A DNA stretch of 5,913 bases from a virus. A program made the translations under genes and the position numbers. The stretch covers positions 1 to 5,913 of IMG/VR virus record IMGVR_UViG_3300020030_000109. One strand, written 5' to 3'. The notes under the pieces are model-generated. The model was not told where the DNA came from, did no database searches, and was given only the letters and a program-made list of their open reading frames with translations. Shown piece by piece: positions 1-5,913 of this stretch (the stretch's first letter is position 1; every line of letters begins with the position of its first letter).

Positions 1-121
1 GCAGCGATACCAGAATACTACTGGAGAAAGCTGGAGGCTGAAAACCCCGAAAAGGCATGGAGAATCAAGAAGTATCGACAGGAAAAAGCCATAGCGTCCT
101 TAATTGAAAGAAACGCGGAAA
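1..121. repeat. Terminal direct repeat (left copy). It is identical to 5793-5913 and is an assembly overlap of a circular 5,792-nt genome.
   Basis: Base-by-base comparison: gcagcgataccagaatactactggagaaagctggaggctg...gaaagaaacgcggaaa occurs at both ends. The rep reading frame is continuous across the junction (5793 and 1 are both codon position 1). Confidence 0.95.
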
Positions 122-204
122 CCAATAAACCATACGCAGAACAGCTAAAGGACAAAGAAACATCCATGTCCAAAAAGATGAGCAAAGCCAAAGGCATATT
201 TTGA
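1..204 (+). CDS. VP4: C-terminal 67 codons plus stop of the replication initiation protein (VP4/Rep). This is the wrap-around continuation of the ORF starting at 4977.
   Basis: Frame 1 is open from base 1 (AAIPEYYWRKLEAENPEKAWRIKKYRQEKAIASLIERNAETNKPYAEQLKDKETSMSKKMSKAKGIF) to TGA at 202-204. The first 121 nt duplicate the end of the 4977 ORF. A strong terminator follows. Confidence 0.9.
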   Translation, partial: AAIPEYYWRKLEAENPEKAWRIKKYRQEKAIASLIERNAETNKPYAEQLKDKETSMSKKMSKAKGIF

Positions 205-214
205 CACGTGGTGT

Positions 215-266
215 CACTCCGCCAAGTAACTATCAAGTAAGACTACTTGGCGGAGTGTTTTATTTT
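215..266 (+). terminator. Rho-independent terminator downstream of rep.
   Basis: Perfect 14-bp stem cactccgccaagta (215-228) / tacttggcggagtg (244-257) with a 15-nt loop, followed by TTTTATTTT (258-266). Confidence 0.85.
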
Positions 267-272
267 ATATTG

Positions 273-313
273 ACATGCACGTGCGCACACGTAATCGCGC
301 GCACACGCGCATG
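273..313. other. Alternating purine/pyrimidine (CG/CA-type, Z-DNA-prone) imperfect palindrome. It is a candidate ssDNA hairpin with a TAAT loop.
   Basis: Strict R-Y alternation over 273-293 (21 nt) and 296-313 (18 nt). Direct 9-mer gcgcacacg occurs at 283-291 and 299-307. catgc (274-278) pairs with gcatg (309-313), and about 14 of 19 stem positions are pairable around the loop taat (292-295). Confidence 0.6.
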
Positions 314-320
314 ATATTAT
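312..320 (+). promoter_or_regulatory. Possible extended -10 promoter element (TGaTATTAT) facing the iteron / small-ORF region.
   Basis: TG at 312-313, one base, then TATTAT at 315-320. There is no good -35 at 17 bp (taatcg). A consensus TTGACA at 270-275 is too far upstream to serve it. The region is AT-rich, so chance occurrence is plausible. Confidence 0.3.
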
Positions 321-358
321 TATTATTTTATTATTAATTTGTTGTAGTCGTAGTAGTA
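315..358. repeat. Triplet-periodic low-complexity tract: (TAT)4 TT (TAT)2 TAATTT followed by GTT GTA GTC (GTA)3.
   Basis: Read directly: tattattattat (315-326), tattat (329-334), gttgtagtcgtagtagta (341-358). It ends in a G5 run (359-363). Confidence 0.8.
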
Positions 359-370
359 GGGGGTGTTGAA

Positions 371-454
371 ATGTTGAAAACTATGAATTTTTATCCTTGG
401 AACGATATTTTTTGGTTAATTTTGATGTTGATACTTTTGTGGATAACCTGTTGA
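371..454 (+). CDS. Candidate 27-aa hydrophobic peptide (MLKTMNFYPWNDIFWLILMLILLWITC). It is a possible membrane, lysis or toxin-type small protein and is absent from the ORF track because of its length.
   Basis: ATG at 371 lies 7 nt after the SD-like AGGGGGTG (358-365), the same GGGGG-type SD used by the 913 and 4098 genes. The ORF is open for 27 codons to TGA 452-454. The C-terminal 15 residues are TM-like. Caveat: T-rich non-coding DNA readily gives hydrophobic pseudo-ORFs. Confidence 0.35.
   Translation: MLKTMNFYPWNDIFWLILMLILLWITC
438..446 (-). promoter_or_regulatory. Perfect consensus DnaA box (TGTGGATAA, the reverse complement of TTATCCACA).
   Basis: Exact 9/9 match to the E. coli / B. 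subtilis DnaA-box consensus. It sits immediately 5' (2-nt spacer CC) of a TGTTGAAA pair. Confidence 0.55.
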
Positions 455-475
455 AATGTTGAAAGTGTAGCAATA

Positions 476-495
476 TGCACAAAAACCTTTGTGCA
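476..495. other. Hairpin / inverted repeat between the two iteron modules.
   Basis: tgcacaaa (476-483), loop aacc, tttgtgca (488-495), a perfect 8-bp stem. Each arm overlaps a near-DnaA-box 9-mer: atatgcaca at 473-481 and tgtgcaaca at 490-498. Confidence 0.6.
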
Positions 496-501
496 ACATT
501 T

Positions 502-510
502 TGTGGAAAA
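502..510 (-). promoter_or_regulatory. DnaA box fitting the relaxed consensus TTWTNCACA (TGTGGAAAA, reverse complement TTTTCCACA).
   Basis: 8/9 to the strict consensus and 9/9 to the relaxed one. It has the same orientation and the same CC-TGTTGAAA context as the box at 438-446. Confidence 0.45.
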
Positions 511-549
511 CCTGTTGAAAGTGTTGAAAGTGTTGAAAAAGCAAATAAA

Positions 550-620
550 GGCCGGCCGGCGAGCGAAATCGAAAGGTCGCGTCATGCTCTTCGTACGGCG
601 CACCGCGCCTAGCGCATGAC
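550..620. other. GC-rich structured island inside the AT-rich non-coding region: a GGCCGGCC palindrome plus a nested imperfect hairpin.
   Basis: ggccggcc at 550-557. Outer stem gtcatgc (581-587) / gcatgac (614-620). Inner stem ggcgc (597-601) / gcgcc (605-609) with loop acc, plus a595-t610 and t594-a611. Confidence 0.6.
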
Positions 621-659
621 CTTCAAGGCAAAATTCTTCTAACTTTTTTTCAAAAAAGC

Positions 660-693
660 TTGACTTTTAGATAAAAATATGATAGAATATAAT
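660..693 (+). promoter_or_regulatory. Strong sigma70/sigmaA-type promoter (P1) for the two-small-ORF cassette.
   Basis: -35 TTGACT (660-665), a 17-nt spacer, an extended TG (680-681) and -10 TAGAAT (683-688). A perfect TATAAT overlaps at 688-693. An A/T-rich UP-like tract lies at 631-658. Confidence 0.8.
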
Positions 694-714
694 CACAGAA
701 AGGAAGTAATCAAA

Positions 715-894
715 ATGAAGCAAAAGGAATACAAGTTTTTAGCAAAAATTAGCTACAAGGACGGAAGAGAAGAGACGAACCCGTTTATTGACTACACAGC
801 AAGCGCAAGAGTACGAGCTAAAAAAGTAGCAAGCAGAACAGATGTGGACTCAGTAACGCTATACAGGATAGACAAAACCGAAGAATTTATCTGA
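715..894 (+). CDS. Hypothetical small protein, 59 aa (MKQKEYKFLAKISYKDGREETNPFIDYTASARVRAKKVASRTDVDSVTLYRIDKTEEFI).
   Basis: This is the ORF-track entry 679-894. I moved the start to ATG 715 because ATG 679 lies inside the -10 region of P1. The SD AAAGGAAG (699-706) is 8 nt upstream of 715. I recognise no family. Confidence 0.65.
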   Translation: MKQKEYKFLAKISYKDGREETNPFIDYTASARVRAKKVASRTDVDSVTLYRIDKTEEFI

Positions 895-912
895 GAAAGG
901 GGGACAACAAAA

Positions 913-1098
913 ATGAGAACGAAATCCTTAGGCCACCTAAGCAAAAAAGCCACAGTAGAACTATTTACATGCGGAACCTACGACAGCAAAAAATACAGAT
1001 ACATATACAAGCCGGACGAAGACAGCGTATACAGAATCGAAAAAGAGCTGTTAGGCACAACCGAAGCACTCAACCCCGAAAATTGGATAGAACAGTAA
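913..1098 (+). CDS. Hypothetical small protein, 61 aa.
   Basis: ORF-track entry. The SD GAAAGGGGGA (896-905) lies upstream of ATG 913, with its G5 core (899-903) 9 nt before the start. A terminator follows directly. I recognise no family. Confidence 0.65.
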   Translation: MRTKSLGHLSKKATVELFTCGTYDSKKYRYIYKPDEDSVYRIEKELLGTTEALNPENWIEQ

Positions 1099-1106
1099 AA
1101 ATAACC

Positions 1107-1132
1107 AAAGAGGCTTGACAAGCCTCTTTTTT
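1107..1132 (+). terminator. Rho-independent terminator closing the small-ORF cassette.
   Basis: Stem aaagaggctt (1107-1116) / aagcctcttt (1121-1130), loop gaca. The T-run 1127-1132 overlaps the 3' arm of the stem. Confidence 0.8.
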
Positions 1133-1143
1133 AAATATATACT
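1115..1143 (+). promoter_or_regulatory. Near-consensus promoter (P2) for the structural/replication gene block. Its -35 lies in the loop and 3' arm of the preceding terminator.
   Basis: -35 TTGACA (1115-1120), exactly 17 nt of spacer (1121-1137), -10 TATACT (1138-1143). Confidence 0.65.
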
Positions 1144-1219
1144 AAAAACAGTTAAACAGCACAAAAGTGCTCTTTTACAAAACCATTTATACAAAATAAT
1201 TTTTTAGGAGGTGTTTGCT

Positions 1220-1324
1220 CTGACCTTCAAGGAAATTAACGCGCTGTTTAGCAACATCCGCAAAATCCTAGCCATGTTGGATAAGATTTATCACGCAGTA
1301 GAGGGCAACAAGCCCGAGGAGTAA
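1220..1324 (+). CDS. Candidate 34-codon ORF with a non-canonical CTG start ((M)TFKEINALFSNIRKILAMLDKIYHAVEGNKPEE).
   Basis: A consensus SD AGGAGGTG (1206-1213) has no ATG/GTG/TTG at productive spacing. The only near-cognate start at 5-10 nt is CTG 1220 (8 nt after GGAGG), which opens a frame to TAA 1322-1324. The peptide is predicted to be helical and amphipathic. The alternative in-frame start ATG 1274 has no SD. Confidence 0.3.
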   Translation: MTFKEINALFSNIRKILAMLDKIYHAVEGNKPEE

Positions 1325-1337
1325 CAACGAGTGGCCT

Positions 1338-1559
1338 ATGAAAACTTGGAACGTAAGAGACCAGACCGACACGACGCTAGCGACGACACTCGCCAGAACC
1401 TACAAGGAAATCGAAGCGACATACAAACACGTAAAAAAAGCCGCAACGATAGAGGACGCAAAATTTTACATTGACATGGCATTTAGGAAAAAAGCTTTCG
1501 CAAATGACATCGAGATGGAACAAATCCGGAGGAGAATCAACAATGGCGAAGAGGAATAA
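1338..1559 (+). CDS. Hypothetical protein, 73 aa, predicted helical.
   Basis: ORF-track entry on the same strand as all phage genes. The SD is weak (GAGTGG 1329-1334). It starts 13 nt after the stop of the candidate CTG ORF, so translational coupling is possible. I recognise no family. Confidence 0.5.
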   Translation: MKTWNVRDQTDTTLATTLARTYKEIEATYKHVKKAATIEDAKFYIDMAFRKKAFANDIEMEQIRRRINNGEEE

Positions 1560-1662
1560 AGTCCGCAAATCCAAAGACGCAAAAATTTACAACAAGACCG
1601 CAAAAAAAACCAAGGCAATCAACCTTGGGAGCGGCGCAATGCGAGGAGGTATCCGACTGTGA
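1543..1662 (+). CDS. Small basic DNA-binding/packaging protein, 39 aa, analogue of phiX174 J and gokushovirus ORF8 (MAKRNKVRKSKDAKIYNKTAKKTKAINLGSGAMRGGIRL).
   Basis: This is ORF-track 1471-1662 trimmed to ATG 1543, which lies 8 nt after the SD GGAGGAG (1528-1534). The protein is very K/R-rich. Its C-terminal MRGGIRL resembles the RGG-basic-hydrophobic C-terminus I recall for chlamydiaphage and SpV4 ORF8 proteins. That recollection is from memory and not verified. Confidence 0.65.
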   Translation: MAKRNKVRKSKDAKIYNKTAKKTKAINLGSGAMRGGIRL

Positions 1663-1901
1663 GCAACAATGTATATGGCATCTATGACAAATGCGTGATG
1701 GGCTATATCACCATCTTTACCGAGCGCGAAGACAAGGTGGCCGAGCGTAACTTTAAGATTGCACTGACCGACGAACACAACATCATGAGCAAGACACCCA
1801 GTGACTACAGGCTGGTGCGGCTTGCAAAATTCGACGAACGCGACGGCGACTTCACGGAAGCAAAGGAGAACATTTACGATGGCGTTTCGCTCAGTAAGTA
1901 A
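1659..1901 (+). CDS. VP5-like non-structural protein, 80 aa.
   Basis: The GTG start overlaps the upstream stop (GTGA, 1659-1662). The SD GAGGAGG (1643-1649) is 9 nt upstream. The pattern VYGIYDK...Y...F...A.R.F....P.DY.L..L..FD...G.F matches my recollection of gokushovirus VP5, and its position just upstream of VP3 is typical. Confidence 0.6.
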   Translation: MSNNVYGIYDKCVMGYITIFTEREDKVAERNFKIALTDEHNIMSKTPSDYRLVRLAKFDERDGDFTEAKENIYDGVSLSK

Positions 1902-2373
1902 CTTTCGAAAAACAGCAACAGCAAAGCCAACCGAAGCCGGAGAAAGCGTAAGACGCACATACCTCTGGGAACGCGACGACAAAGGCGAAAAGGTACTGAG
2001 ACTCGACCAGACGATTGACCAGCAGGCGGAAATCGACTCCTACTTGGAAGAAACCAAGATAGAAAACATTATCCGACGGGCAAGCATCGACCCGAACATT
2101 GCAGCACGAATCGCGCCAGACTTGGGCGGCGGCGTCCAAGATTTTACCGAAATGCCGCATACGCTAGCAGAACTCCAAAACATCATGATACGAGCTGAAC
2201 AGATTTGGGACGAAGTGCCAAAAGAAATCAAGCTCAAATTCAACAACGATGTCGATAATTTTGTTGCATCGTTTGGCACGGTCGAATGGGCTAAAAATCT
2301 GGGCATCTACAAAGAAAAACAGCCCAACAACAAAACAACCGAGGCAACAGAAGTAACGGAGGCTAAAGAGTGA
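1879..2373 (+). CDS. VP3: Internal scaffolding protein VP3, 164 aa.
   Basis: This is ORF-track 1801-2373 trimmed to ATG 1879, which lies 9 nt after the SD AAGGAGA (1863-1869). The conserved gokushovirus scaffold core is present: DFTEMPHTLAELQNIMIRAEQIWDEVPKEIKLKFNNDVDNFVASF. It lies immediately upstream of VP1. Confidence 0.8.
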   Translation: MAFRSVSNFRKTATAKPTEAGESVRRTYLWERDDKGEKVLRLDQTIDQQAEIDSYLEETKIENIIRRASIDPNIAARIAPDLGGGVQDFTEMPHTLAELQNIMIRAEQIWDEVPKEIKLKFNNDVDNFVASFGTVEWAKNLGIYKEKQPNNKTTEATEVTEAKE

Positions 2374-4055
2374 ATAGAAACAAAGATGCGGGATTTAACC
2401 AGGTTCCGCGACTGGACATCACGCGAAGCCGCTTCAAAAGGCGGCAAGACGTCAAACTGACAATGAATGCAGGACAGCTTATCCCGTTTTACGTGGATGA
2501 GGTATTGCCGGGTGATACTTTTAGCATCGACCAAGCTGCTATTATCCGAATGACAACTCCTATCTTTCCGGTCATGGATAACTGTTACATGGACGTTTAT
2601 TATTTCTTCACACCCAACCGAATCCTGTGGGAAAACTGGAAACGGTTCATGGGCGAAAACGACACTGGTCCATGGGCACAAACGCAGGAGTACACAATTC
2701 CGCAAGTTAATATAGTCGGCACAGCAGAAAAACCCGCACCTTATGAAGGCAGCATCCTAGACTACATGGGCATCCCGACCAAGATAAGCAAGGGCGAAAG
2801 CACGGCGTTCACGGTCAACGCTCTGCCAATGCGGGCGTATGCTATGATTTGGCAGGAATGGTTTCGAGACCAAAACGTGGACAATCCGGCTATTAACAGC
2901 ACGGCGGACGCAAATGTAAACTATACGGACGACGAGAGCAAAGGCATGGACGCAGCAACGCCGGATTTGGAGTACATTCTCCAGAACGCATACACCGGCG
3001 GCAGACCGTTGCCTGTTAACAAATTCCATGACTACTTCACCAGTGCACTGCCGAGTCCGCAGAAAGCGGGGGAACCGGTAGCAATCCCATTAGGCGGAAA
3101 AGCGCCGGTATATGGATATAAGTACAACAGCGACACAAAGGAACCGGAAACGTTAAATTTTGTCACACATCTCTGGCAAAACTCAACCGTCGCTAACTCG
3201 GAAGACCAAGGGTTAGAAATATCCGCCTACAGTATAGACGAAGATGAAAACTATTCTTACCACAGCATGTACTTGTACACAGACATGAGCCAAGTAAACA
3301 GTACAACCATCAACCAACTGAGACAGGCGTTCCAGGTCCAAAAATACTACGAACAGTTGGCGCGCGGCGGCAGCAGATACCGTGAGATGATTTATTCGCT
3401 GTTTCACACCAAAATCAGCGATAAAACGGTACAAATCCCGGAGTATCTGGGCGGTACGCGCATCACCATCAACATGAGCCAAGTCATCCAGACCAGCGGC
3501 ACAACGGCAGAGAGTCCGCAGGGCAACACAGCAGCAGTAAGCGTTACACCGTACAACGGCAGTATGTTTACTAAGAGTTTCGAAGAGCACGGCTTTGTTA
3601 TCGGTGTATGCTGCATCCGGCATGACCATACTTACCAGCAGGGACTCGAGCGGATGTGGAGTCGAAAAACCAATCTGGATTTCTACTACCCCGTCTTTGC
3701 AAATCTGGGAGAACAGGCCATTCTTAAAAAGGAGCTGTATCTCACTGGTACGAGCACCGACGAACAGGCATTTGGCTACCAAGAAGCATGGGCAGAATAC
3801 CGCATGAAGCCAAACAGAATCAGCGGCAAATTCCGGAGCAACGCAACGGGAACGCTGGATAGTTGGCACTACGGCGACAACTACACGGAAACGCCAAGCT
3901 TAAGTCAAGCATGGATGAAAGAAGGAGACTCAGAAATTCAGAGAACTTTGGCAGTGGACAACGAACCCCAGTTTATCATGGACACCATCATCGATAATAC
4001 GTCCGTCAGACCGATGCCAATGTACAGCATACCAGGACTCGTAGACCATCACTAA
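2370..4055 (+). CDS. VP1: Major capsid protein VP1 (Microviridae F-protein family), 561 aa.
   Basis: Hallmark N-terminus FNQVPRLDITRSRFKRRQDVKLTMNAGQLIPFYVDEVLPGDTF, plus HDYFTSALPSPQK, INQLRQAFQVQKYYE and RYREMI. The size is typical of gokushovirus capsids with a large surface insertion. The GTG start overlaps the VP3 stop (GTGA), and the SD GGAGG (2358-2362) is 7 nt upstream. Confidence 0.95.
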   Translation: MNRNKDAGFNQVPRLDITRSRFKRRQDVKLTMNAGQLIPFYVDEVLPGDTFSIDQAAIIRMTTPIFPVMDNCYMDVYYFFTPNRILWENWKRFMGENDTGPWAQTQEYTIPQVNIVGTAEKPAPYEGSILDYMGIPTKISKGESTAFTVNALPMRAYAMIWQEWFRDQNVDNPAINSTADANVNYTDDESKGMDAATPDLEYILQNAYTGGRPLPVNKFHDYFTSALPSPQKAGEPVAIPLGGKAPVYGYKYNSDTKEPETLNFVTHLWQNSTVANSEDQGLEISAYSIDEDENYSYHSMYLYTDMSQVNSTTINQLRQAFQVQKYYEQLARGGSRYREMIYSLFHTKISDKTVQIPEYLGGTRITINMSQVIQTSGTTAESPQGNTAAVSVTPYNGSMFTKSFEEHGFVIGVCCIRHDHTYQQGLERMWSRKTNLDFYYPVFANLGEQAILKKELYLTGTSTDEQAFGYQEAWAEYRMKPNRISGKFRSNATGTLDSWHYGDNYTETPSLSQAWMKEGDSEIQRTLAVDNEPQFIMDTIIDNTSVRPMPMYSIPGLVDHH

Positions 4056-4066
4056 AGAGAGGGGGA

Positions 4067-4097
4067 AAGCCCAGGGCAAAACCCTGGGCTTATTTTT
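4067..4097 (+). terminator. Intercistronic hairpin plus T-tract between VP1 and VP2. It is likely a partial terminator and also bridges the VP2 SD to its start codon.
   Basis: Perfect 10-bp stem aagcccaggg (4067-4076) / ccctgggctt (4082-4091), loop caaaa, then ATTTTT (4092-4097) running straight into ATG 4098. Confidence 0.7.
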
Positions 4098-4976
4098 ATG
4101 GGATTATTAGCAACACTCGGAGTGCCTATCCTTAAAGCAGTAATTCCAAGCTTCATAGGAGCAGCAGCAAACAAACTGTTCGGCACAAGCTCAAGTTACG
4201 GACAGCAAGGACAATCAAACAGTCAAAGCAGCGGCTCAAGCTGGTCACAAGGCTCAAGCGACAGCGCAAGTTTCAGCAGCAGCGGAACAAACGACGAGAT
4301 AAACAAGAGCATTGCAGCACTAGCAAACCAGATAAGTCAAGGAAGTATGGCCGGACAACAGAAATACAATCGTAACTCAATGCTCATGCAAATGGGATAT
4401 AACACCTTAGGGGCAATCCAACAAGGCGTGTACAATCACATCCAGCAGCAAACAGCCATGAGTTACAACTCGGCAGAAGCGGCGACAAACAGAGCATGGC
4501 AAGAGAGAATGAGCAACACATCTTACCAGAGAGCTGTCGAAGACATGAGAAAAGCGGGAATCAATCCTATCTTAGCATACACACAAGGCGGCGCAAGCAC
4601 TCCAAGCGGAGCACAAGGAACAATCGGGAGCGCAAGTATGGGCATGGCATCCAGCAGCGCACTGGGAGCAACAGCATTACCAGGCATCAAACAAGACGGA
4701 AGCTGGAGCAGTCATAGCGAAGCATGGAGCCACGCAGAAAACGCAGCTGAAAGCATCCAACAAGCTATCATGTCGAGCAGCTCAAACCCGGTAAGACTCA
4801 AAGGAGACATGGAAGCCATAGCCGAAACGGCTGTAGAAAACGCAGCCAAACTCAAAGAAAAATTCGCAGCCTTACCCGTGGCAGACAAAGCAAAAAATGA
4901 ACTCGCGAATAGACTCGAAAGTTCAAGAAGACACTTGCCCACAGGGTATATGAGCATAAATCCGAGAGGTAAATAA
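4098..4976 (+). CDS. VP2: Minor capsid / DNA pilot protein VP2, 292 aa.
   Basis: Hydrophobic N-terminus, S/Q/G-rich low-complexity region, and the conserved pilot-protein motif [24 protein letters not shown]. It occupies the canonical position after VP1. Confidence 0.85.
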
Positions 4977-5913
4977 ATGGGATGCAATAAACCGTTAATC
5001 CGGTTTTATGTACCTCATAACAGGGAGGCGAGCGGGCGAGTGTACTCACTCGCCTCTTTTAATGAGACGCATAAGACAAACCTTAGATATGAAGACTTAA
5101 TGTACAGAAAAGATGTAATGTTGATACCATGCGGACAATGTACCGGATGCAAACTACGCAAGCGCAAAGATTGGTCAACACGAATGGAGCTAGAAGCATA
5201 TGGACACAGCAAAGAAAGTATCTGGTTTATCACACTGACTTATGATGATGACCACGTGCCAACGCAGGACACCGAAACAGGCGAAATCTATAAAGGCGGC
5301 ATAAACATCTGGAAAGGCGTCTCAGAGCGTCCAAGAACAGCTCAAACACTGAGCGTAGAGGATACCCAACTATTCATAAAAAGGCTCAGAAAGGCCGTCA
5401 AAGAGCCTCTGAGATACTTTTTAGCAGGAGAGTACGGAGACAACACAGCGAGACCGCACTATCACATGATACTGTATGGATGGCATCCGGACGACTTAAA
5501 ACCAATACACAAGCTGTCAAGACACGGTCACTACACAAGCGATAAACTAATAAAAATCTGGGGGCAAGGAGCAGTTGACATAGCGCAAGCAACACCGGAG
5601 ACATATAATTATGTTGCAGGATATGTGACTAAAAAGCTGTACGGCAACGACAAAAAGCGTTACCAGAAAATGGGTTTAATACCACCATTTTGCACAATGA
5701 GCCGGAAACCGGGACTCGGAGACAAATGGTTTGAGGACAACCAAGAGCGACTCTGGCAGCAAGGATACATACAGCTTACCAACGGAAAGAGAGCAGCGAT
5801 ACCAGAATACTACTGGAGAAAGCTGGAGGCTGAAAACCCCGAAAAGGCATGGAGAATCAAGAAGTATCGACAGGAAAAAGCCATAGCGTCCTTAATTGAA
5901 AGAAACGCGGAAA
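4977..5913 (+). CDS. VP4: Replication initiation protein VP4 (HUH rolling-circle endonuclease, phiX174 protein A family). The N-terminal 312 codons are here. The ORF runs off the window and ends at 204 after circularisation (about 339 aa in total).
   Basis: ATG 4977 directly abuts the VP2 stop (TAAATG) with the SD GAGAGG (4964-4969). Motifs: CGQCTGCKLRKRKDW, FITLTY, RPHYHMILYG (HYH at 5457-5465), and YVAGYVTKK with two Tyr spaced by three residues (5610-5612 and 5622-5624; compare phiX174 A, YVAKYVNKK). It is missing from the ORF track only because it is open-ended. Confidence 0.93.
   Translation, partial: MGCNKPLIRFYVPHNREASGRVYSLASFNETHKTNLRYEDLMYRKDVMLIPCGQCTGCKLRKRKDWSTRMELEAYGHSKESIWFITLTYDDDHVPTQDTETGEIYKGGINIWKGVSERPRTAQTLSVEDTQLFIKRLRKAVKEPLRYFLAGEYGDNTARPHYHMILYGWHPDDLKPIHKLSRHGHYTSDKLIKIWGQGAVDIAQATPETYNYVAGYVTKKLYGNDKKRYQKMGLIPPFCTMSRKPGLGDKWFEDNQERLWQQGYIQLTNGKRAAIPEYYWRKLEAENPEKAWRIKKYRQEKAIASLIERNAE
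5035..5060 (+). terminator. Terminator-like hairpin inside the 5' end of rep, a possible attenuator.
   Basis: 8-bp GC-rich stem ggcgagtg (5035-5042) / cactcgcc (5047-5054), loop tact, then TCTTTT (5055-5060). An alternative upstream arm gaggcgag (5025-5032) can pair with ctcgcctc (5049-5056). Confidence 0.4.
5793..5913. repeat. Terminal direct repeat (right copy), identical to 1-121.
   Basis: Same 121-nt string as the window start. Confidence 0.95.

Follow-up and report, generated by a model that had tools for sequence, protein, structure and literature searches.

A conserved non-coding module of gokushoviruses with the anatomy of a bacterial origin-opening element

The stretch of DNA analyzed here (the window, 5,913 nucleotides) covers positions 1 to 5,913 of IMG/VR virus record IMGVR_UViG_3300020030_000109 and represents a gokushovirus genome, circular and complete at 5792 nt, plus a 121-nt terminal direct repeat (1-121 = 5793-5913) from circular assembly. 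Within a 510-nt non-coding stretch, which runs from the replication gene VP4 to a sigma-70-like promoter at 660-688, positions 311-540 hold a module composed of an A+T-rich tract, a run of DnaA-trios, a short G-rich gap and an array of direct repeats and DnaA boxes. We consider it probable (about 0.65) that this is a phage-borne, host-type origin-opening module, at which host DnaA would open the double-stranded replicative form at 311-344 in the manner of the bacterial basal unwinding system (BUS). The sequences show the anatomy of the module, its conservation, its correspondence to the dnaA-dnaN origins of bacteria and the co-variation of its repeats with a variant DnaA, and the organization suggests that the phage recruits the host initiator DnaA. 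The textbook account of Microviridae replication combines a Rep-driven rolling circle with host priming.

In a BUS, by definition, one or two co-oriented DnaA boxes are followed by a G/C-rich gap about 4 bp long, by three or more NAN trios whose consensus is 3'-GAT-5', and finally by A+T-rich DNA; the published search rules admit a box with at most two mismatches, an optional second tandem box with at most four, and a spacer of no more than 16 bp to the better box (Pelliciari 2021). Positions 339-380 of the window read TTG TTG TAG TCG TAG TAG TAG GGGG TGTTGAAA TGTTGAAAA. The box at 372-380, TGTTGAAAA, has two mismatches to TGTGGATAA and one to the relaxed consensus, while its tandem partner at 364-372 has three. 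Both are co-oriented toward the trios in the order 5'-TAG trios-gap-TGTGGATAA-3', the gap is GGGG, and the better box begins 12 nt from the last trio. The trios themselves comprise TAG TAG TAG at 351-359 together with TCG and a further TAG, and the region beyond them (311-344) is 91% A+T. A signature of this core, TAGTAGTAG-N4-TGTKGAAA, is found at 351-371 and nowhere else in the window, and none of 200 shuffles contains it. The complement of the trios, CTACTACTA, contains TnnT pairs of the type that defines the DnaD recognition element (DRE).

Comparison with characterized Firmicutes elements extends this correspondence. For B. subtilis, Table S1 of Pelliciari 2021 gives 3'-AATAGGTGT TTAGGTGT CCGG GATGAT...-5', which is 5'-...TAGTAG GGCC TGTGGATT TGTGGATAA-3' on the other strand, against TAGTAG GGGG TGTTGAAA TGTTGAAAA in the window; order, box orientation, 4-nt gap and 8-nt phasing are equal. 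The Firmicutes gaps in the same table are 4 nt long (CCGG, CGTG, CCTG, TCGG), and the C. difficile oriC2 trio sequence TAGTAGTAATAGTAGTAGGTG, read on the same strand, is nearly identical to the trios of the window. The Firmicutes elements (B. subtilis incC boxes 6/7 and C. difficile oriC2) and the phage module therefore have in common the A+T-rich DNA, TAG trios, 4-nt G/C gap, tandem boxes, further co-oriented clusters and TnnT motifs on the complementary strand. They differ in that the window module lies downstream of VP4 on a 5.8-kb rolling-circle single-stranded DNA (ssDNA) phage, without flanking dnaA or dnaN, has just three perfect trios plus one or two further ones, includes a phage-specific decamer, TAACTTGTTG, and occurs either way round and at two places in the genome. 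The element is the same kind of module as a BUS, but it is no chromosomal oriC. A previous sequence-only reading of this DNA had described an oriC-like layout of an unwinding element plus boxes. That description stands; the trios and GGGG gap (345-363), the match to host origins and the mobility of the module were absent from it.

The direct repeat TGTTGAAA occurs seven times in the window, on the plus strand only (364, 372, 449, 457, 513, 522 and 531), against 0.30 copies expected, and none of 200 shuffles reaches seven. The seven repeats had been pointed out in the sequence-only reading, as had a perfect DnaA box (438-446) and a relaxed one (502-510) in the same orientation, each followed directly by CC and then TGTTGAAA; all were found as claimed, and the relaxed consensus is expected only 0.52 times in the window. 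The proposed duplication of a box-repeat unit was likewise recovered, as the 22-nt module TTTTGTGGAWAACCTGTTGAAA at 435-456 and 499-520, with 95% identity and a separation of 64 nt. Between the two copies, the hairpin reported at 476-495 is indeed a perfect 8-bp one, but its arms, described as near-DnaA boxes, have 2-3 mismatches, whereas the overlapping TGTGCAACA (490-498) has one. Other relatives carry a different hairpin at this position (CGTCA-AAA-TGACG) while ttgtgcaacattt is conserved. The spacer that follows the trio-proximal pair (380-437 in the window, ~1225-1260 in L014 and ~2550-2570 in L199) also often bears a hairpin, gtactttttct...agaaaaagtac in phages and ttgtccatatatggacaa in bacterial origins, and it is followed by a second box cluster ~54-64 nt away in phages and bacterial origins alike.

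Among the more than 200 complete relatives examined, none lacks the module. A BLAST search against GenBank phages returned 42 gokushovirus records matching the non-coding region, several of which match only 425-539, at 83-88% identity, with their genes below threshold. All 26 GenBank genomes that were fetched show the A+T-rich DNA, TAACTTGTTG, TAG NNG TAG TAG TAG, a 4-nt gap, a box, GTTGAAAA and clusters of TGTTGAAA in this order, the first box being TGTGGAAAA, AGTGGAAAA or TGTTGAAA. At least 120 contigs in IMG/VR carry the core, and all are 4-6 kb long. A sample of 80 relatives was chosen by VP4 similarity alone; the module was found in every contig spanning the region and was missing solely from two partial contigs. 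Across 141 module-bearing genomes, one strand of the module carries 5.8 copies of TGTTGAAA and the opposite strand 0, and outside the module a genome has 0.11. The density of relaxed-consensus DnaA boxes within the module is 87 times that of the remaining sequence, and 94 of these genomes have such boxes in the same orientation. The in-frame 4-nt gap is kept in 111 of the 141 modules, and the trio variants seen in relatives (TAA, CAG) retain the central A. The trio-proximal site reads TGTGGAAAA in 45 genomes, TGTTGAAAT in 18 and AGTGGAAAA in 11, and the site after it, GTTGAAAA, is 97-99% conserved. The decamer TAACTTGTTG is conserved in 45 of 48 relatives that were not chosen for it and is present in one of the 120 bacterial origin loci listed; the window and L001 read AATTTG rather than AACTTG within it. 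Because the module is near-invariant among relatives whose identity to the window is 33-96% (median 54%) in VP4 and 39-87% in VP1, the non-coding core is far more conserved than the proteins. It is the sole non-coding element universal in the clade. Alignment of relatives had been proposed as a check on the motifs, and the module is kept in the 26 GenBank genomes, in every contig spanning the region among the 80 chosen by VP4 and in the set of 141.

The variation of the repeats is that of DnaA sites, as had been suspected from the sequence alone. At the position homologous to 502-510, L006, L007, L008 and L012 carry TGTTGAAAA, and TGTTGAAAA and TGTGGAAAA interchange. The commonest single-base variant of the repeat in the 141 genomes is T4G (TGTGGAAA), with 134 cases against one each of T4C and T4A, and TGTGGAWA sites bear the ninth consensus A in 140 of 153 cases. 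Spo0A, whose 0A-box is TGTCGAA, was rejected as the ligand of the repeat, T4C occurring once among ~1290 sites.

Bacterial genomes, one per species, were scanned with the 17-nt signature TAGTAGTAG-N4-TGTTGAAA, which gave at least 120 matches. Of the 120 listed, 85 fall in the dnaA-dnaN interval, all with the same orientation, and this interval is the canonical origin position of Firmicutes. The A+T/trio end points toward dnaN and the boxes toward dnaA in each of the 85 loci (DnaA and DnaN were confirmed by Pfam in 3), and TGTTGAAA is the box nearest the trios in these dnaA-dnaN origins. Origins from metagenome-assembled genomes of Ruminococcus/Oscillospiraceae (L199, L248, L233, L230, L144 and L146) contain 8-14 further co-oriented copies of TGTTGAAA mixed with TGTGGAAAA, and box spacings of 8, 9, 11 and 12 nt are common to these origins and the phage. 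The DnaA of these and other loci reads DHSTIVY(A/S), compared with the usual DHTTVxH(A/S). In E. coli DnaA, T435 and H439 are listed as base-specific contacts, and DHSTIVY alters the equivalents of both. Loci with the Tyr-type DnaA have 6.1 extra copies of TGTTGAAA versus 0.36 in those with the His-type (p = 7e-6, a statistic that ignores phylogeny). These sequence comparisons suggest that DnaA box specificity has shifted in this clade within the Clostridia, and TGTTGAAA is best read as the cognate box of the variant DnaA.

Since TGTTGAAA is shared with the Ruminococcus/Oscillospiraceae origins and accompanies the variant DnaA helix there, the phage repeats, earlier called iterons, would be host-type DnaA boxes rather than a class of their own; and because these bacteria use the same boxes at their origins, gut Ruminococcus/Oscillospiraceae are the likely hosts. 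The resemblance of the phage module to individual origins (for instance L199, L233, L230 and L144) includes the signature TAGTAGTAG-GGGG/GGGC-TGTTGAAA and the hairpin-bearing spacer after the proximal pair as well as box type and spacing. The bacterial origins differ from the phage in being alignable over ~30-40 nt only, in their longer trio runs and in lacking TAACTTGTTG. Integration of a prophage at the host oriC by homology was considered and rejected, as no match to VP1, VP2 or VP4 was found in the 120 bacterial loci listed and the shared sequence amounts to 30-40 nt.

The position of the module relative to the genes is variable. It follows VP4 in gene orientation in 108 of the 141 genomes, is inverted and placed between VP2 and VP4 in 26, and is inverted in place in 6. 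Overall, 32-33 genomes (23%) have it inverted relative to the genes, and its A+T end adjoins VP4 in 134. Comparison of MG945447 (L007) with L011, L012, L006 and L014 reveals a clean ~210-nt inversion of exactly the A+T tract, trios and boxes, with collinear flanks. The inversion is bounded by the short inverted repeats CGCCGT/ACGGCG, whereas another lineage has its inverted module moved to the junction of VP2 and VP4; L008, L009, L010 and L021 also enter into these observations. The module behaves as a unit for which inversion and relocation are tolerated. As a single strand, the plus strand of 300-560 is predicted to fold less stably than 198 of 200 shuffled versions (z = +1.97), in a structure that leaves both consensus DnaA boxes unpaired. 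The inversions and relocations and the poor single-strand folding therefore argue for a self-contained function in duplex DNA and against a priming signal on folded ssDNA.

From this organization we infer DnaA binding, DNA opening and the steps downstream of them. Host DnaA would bind the eleven co-oriented boxes (those of TGTTGAAA type together with TGTGGATAA and TGTGGAAAA) on the replicative form, and DnaA-ATP would oligomerise from the 364-380 pair, across the GGGG gap, onto the plus-strand TAG trios (345-359). The A+T-rich tract at 311-344 would then open, the complementary CTA strand would present its TnnT motifs to DnaD, and the opened DNA would serve to start synthesis on the replicative form. 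Host helicase loading, with theta-type replication or maintenance, seems somewhat more likely than the alternatives as the downstream use. Several points weigh against opening by host DnaA. Binding of DnaA to TGTTGAAA is deduced from position and co-variation alone, the latter ignoring phylogeny, and most of the sites differ from the consensus of E. coli at a base that is normally conserved. The similarity to host origins is at the motif level (30-40 nt) and does not establish common descent, and the assignment of the host is indirect. We know of no need for DnaA in a rolling-circle phage that has its own Rep. Finally, the BUS model leaves unexplained the phage-specific, invariant TAACTTGTTG at the junction of the A+T tract and the trios.

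This decamer (TAATTTGTTG in the window) lies just 5' of the trios, shares AACTTG with the gpA nick site of phiX174 and is, by its sequence, a candidate nick site for VP4. It is the center of an alternative that we regard as unlikely, namely a DnaA-assisted rolling-circle origin of the viral strand, in which opening of 311-344 would expose TAACTTGTTG single-stranded for nicking by the HUH nuclease VP4. HUH nucleases require single-stranded DNA. The invariance and phage specificity of the decamer in sets not selected for it, the universality of the module among the non-coding elements of the clade and the preference of its A+T end for VP4 all favor such an origin, as does the phiX174 viral-strand origin (CAACTTG^ATATTAATAAC..., nick site CAACTTG^A annotated at 4306), in which the same hexamer stands beside an A+T-rich tract in a Microviridae genome. 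However, the likeness to phiX174 consists of one hexamer spotted after the fact, which the window and L001 do not carry; the A+T tract is on the opposite side, and the phiX174 origin lies inside gene A, without DnaA sites. The conserved ~30-nt origin of phiX174 type, CAACTTGATATTAATAACACTATAGACCAC, was not found in the window, and relatives share AACTTG alone. Such an origin would also mean that inversion of the module flips which strand is displaced and packaged, so that 23% of lineages would have to package the antisense strand, for which we know of no precedent in the Microviridae. In its fullest form, the module would be a complete origin, BUS melting would hand TAACTTGTTG to VP4 in a DnaA-gated rolling circle, and the ~23% of inverted lineages would be negative-sense microviruses; this we think rather unlikely.

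An improbable alternative, raised like theta-type maintenance in the sequence-only reading, is that the boxes merely titrate or sense DnaA, without any unwinding of phage DNA. The close packing of 11 boxes on a replicative form that exists in many copies and the promoter-like site ~120 nt downstream of the module are in keeping with it, and clusters of DnaA boxes on plasmids cause incompatibility in B. subtilis. An array of this kind would block host initiation or couple the promoter at 660-688 to the DnaA level. Titration, however, needs boxes only, and leaves unexplained why the trios, a gap of exactly 4 nt, the strictly uniform orientation of the boxes and the A+T tract are conserved; moreover, 32 genomes have the module turned round or moved with respect to promoters.

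As an alternative, the sequence-only reading had offered the repeats, which it called iterons, as the Rep bind locus of a plasmid-style double-strand origin of the pMV158 type. According to this explanation TGTTGAAA would be bound by VP4 or another phage protein and the matches to DnaA boxes would be incidental one-base variants. Direct repeats do lie beside A+T-rich DNA on the downstream side of the Rep gene, and TGTGGAAAA is one substitution away from the repeat. A Rep-bind locus is nonetheless very improbable, because the repeat does not vary with VP4, staying invariant at 33-96% identity where co-variation with Rep would be looked for, and because the same repeat, trios and gap are found at bacterial dnaA-dnaN origins. 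The T/G specificity at position 4 and the gain of the ninth consensus A by TGTGGA sites also speak against incidental matches, and a plasmid similarity search with 205-715 gave no match. Two small open reading frames (71 and 61 aa; 679-1098) directly downstream of the module were rejected as the source of a repeat-binding protein; they are accessory, being detectable in just 9 and 19 of the 141 genomes. The other early proposal, a complementary-strand origin on the packaged single strand, primed through a DnaA-dependent ABC primosome as at the R6K A site or through another folded-ssDNA signal, is barely tenable: the complementary strand of an ssDNA phage has to be primed, 474-484 could pair with box 438-446 through 10 complementary positions out of 11 and some relatives have a TGTGGAAAA...TTTTCCACA inverted pair, but all 824 repeats are co-oriented, so that no stems are possible among them, no consensus box is held in a stable hairpin stem, and neither the poor folding nor the lack of a fixed orientation relative to the genes suits such a signal.

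All genes lie on the plus strand, and their coordinates are collected with those of the module in Table 1. Directly upstream of the A+T tract is a G+C-rich block of alternating purines and pyrimidines (274-310) with two direct copies of CGYGCGCACACG (280-291 and 296-307). Many relatives (e.g. L003) have a long perfect CGCG hairpin at this site and others have none; the block could be a cruciform, Z-DNA-prone DNA or an unwinding boundary. Between the module and the promoter, a conserved G+C-rich element (548-625) contains nested inverted repeats, GTCATGC...GCATGAC around GGCGC-ACC-GCGCC, and its position is taken in other relatives by a second, unrelated G+C-rich element. The stability of the G+C-rich region at 540-640 is not above that of shuffled sequences, and an Rfam scan of 1-1400 at a permissive threshold gave no match in the non-coding region. 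The 548-625 element may be a complementary-strand origin or a terminator.

Table 1 Positions of the module and of its neighbors in the window
Feature	Position	Strand	Remarks
A+T-rich tract, proposed DNA unwinding element	311-344		91% A+T
TAATTTGTTG, variant in the window of the phage-specific TAACTTGTTG	335-344		last 10 nt of the A+T tract
DnaA-trio array TAG TCG TAG TAG TAG	345-359	+	3'-GAT-5' repeats
G-rich 4-nt gap GGGG	360-363		between trios and first box
Tandem trio-proximal boxes TGTTGAAA/TGTTGAAAA, 8-nt phasing	364-380	+	TGTGGATAA-type on +, canonical TTATCCACA orientation on -
Degenerate box TGTTGATAC	426-434	+	2 mismatches to TGTGNAWAA, co-oriented with the other boxes
Perfect-consensus DnaA box	438-446	+	TGTGGATAA on +, TTATCCACA on -
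Two TGTTGAAA boxes, 8-nt phasing	449-464	+	
Perfect 8-bp hairpin TGCACAAA-AACC-TTTGTGCA	476-495		
TGTGCACCA-like box TGTGCAACA	490-498	+	1 mismatch, same orientation, overlaps right hairpin arm, kept in relatives
Relaxed-consensus DnaA box TGTGGAAAA	502-510	+	noted as TTTTCCACA on the other strand
Three TGTTGAAA boxes, 9-nt phasing	513-539	+	
VP1	2370-4055	+	
VP2	4098-4976	+	
VP4 (Rep, 339 aa)	4977 across junction to 204	+	HUH and Tyr motifs
Terminator-like hairpin of VP4	215-257		

BUS-type chromosomal origins are already known, as are DnaA boxes in the origins of plasmids and phages that have their own initiator. The origins of pSC101, P1 (oriR), F, R6K and RK2 combine a few DnaA boxes with iterons for the plasmid Rep, which does the opening. 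They resemble the phage module as mobile replicons with host DnaA boxes beside an A+T-rich region; in contrast to them, the phage array is wholly of DnaA-box type and joined to trios, and to our knowledge a DnaA-trio array has not been described for any of these five. In the literature searched (DnaA or trio with Microviridae or phage), we found neither DnaA boxes nor DnaA-trios described for Microviridae.

A search of IMG/VR with the consensus signature TAGTAGTAG-N4-TGTGGAWAA gave 111 matches, ~80% of them in contigs of microvirus size from this clade. Roughly a dozen contigs are larger and have multi-box modules that are convincing and lack a neighboring dnaA or dnaN. These contigs of 9-160 kb (L328/L333/L374, L331/L334/L392, L332, L339, L343, L354, L365, L367, L370, L387 and L388) show A+T DNA, TAG trios, the 4-nt gap, tandem TGTGGATAA and 3-7 more consensus boxes, and tblastn found neither dnaA nor dnaN in the stretches that were fetched. 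They are presumably double-stranded DNA phages, and judging by these motifs BUS-like origins may be used by other phage groups.

If host DnaA does open the replicative form, a large gut gokushovirus clade gains a conserved replication step that depends on the host initiator, a widespread finding and an unexpected one for a rolling-circle phage, whose host and mechanism are directly testable. Were the replicative form to replicate from this module as a minichromosome, long-term carriage in the absence of an integrase would have a concrete mechanism. Together with the variant DnaA helix, the box dialect TGTTGAAA would amount to a sequence-based host prediction for abundant uncultured gut phages, and origin-motif dialects could serve generally as links between phages and their hosts.

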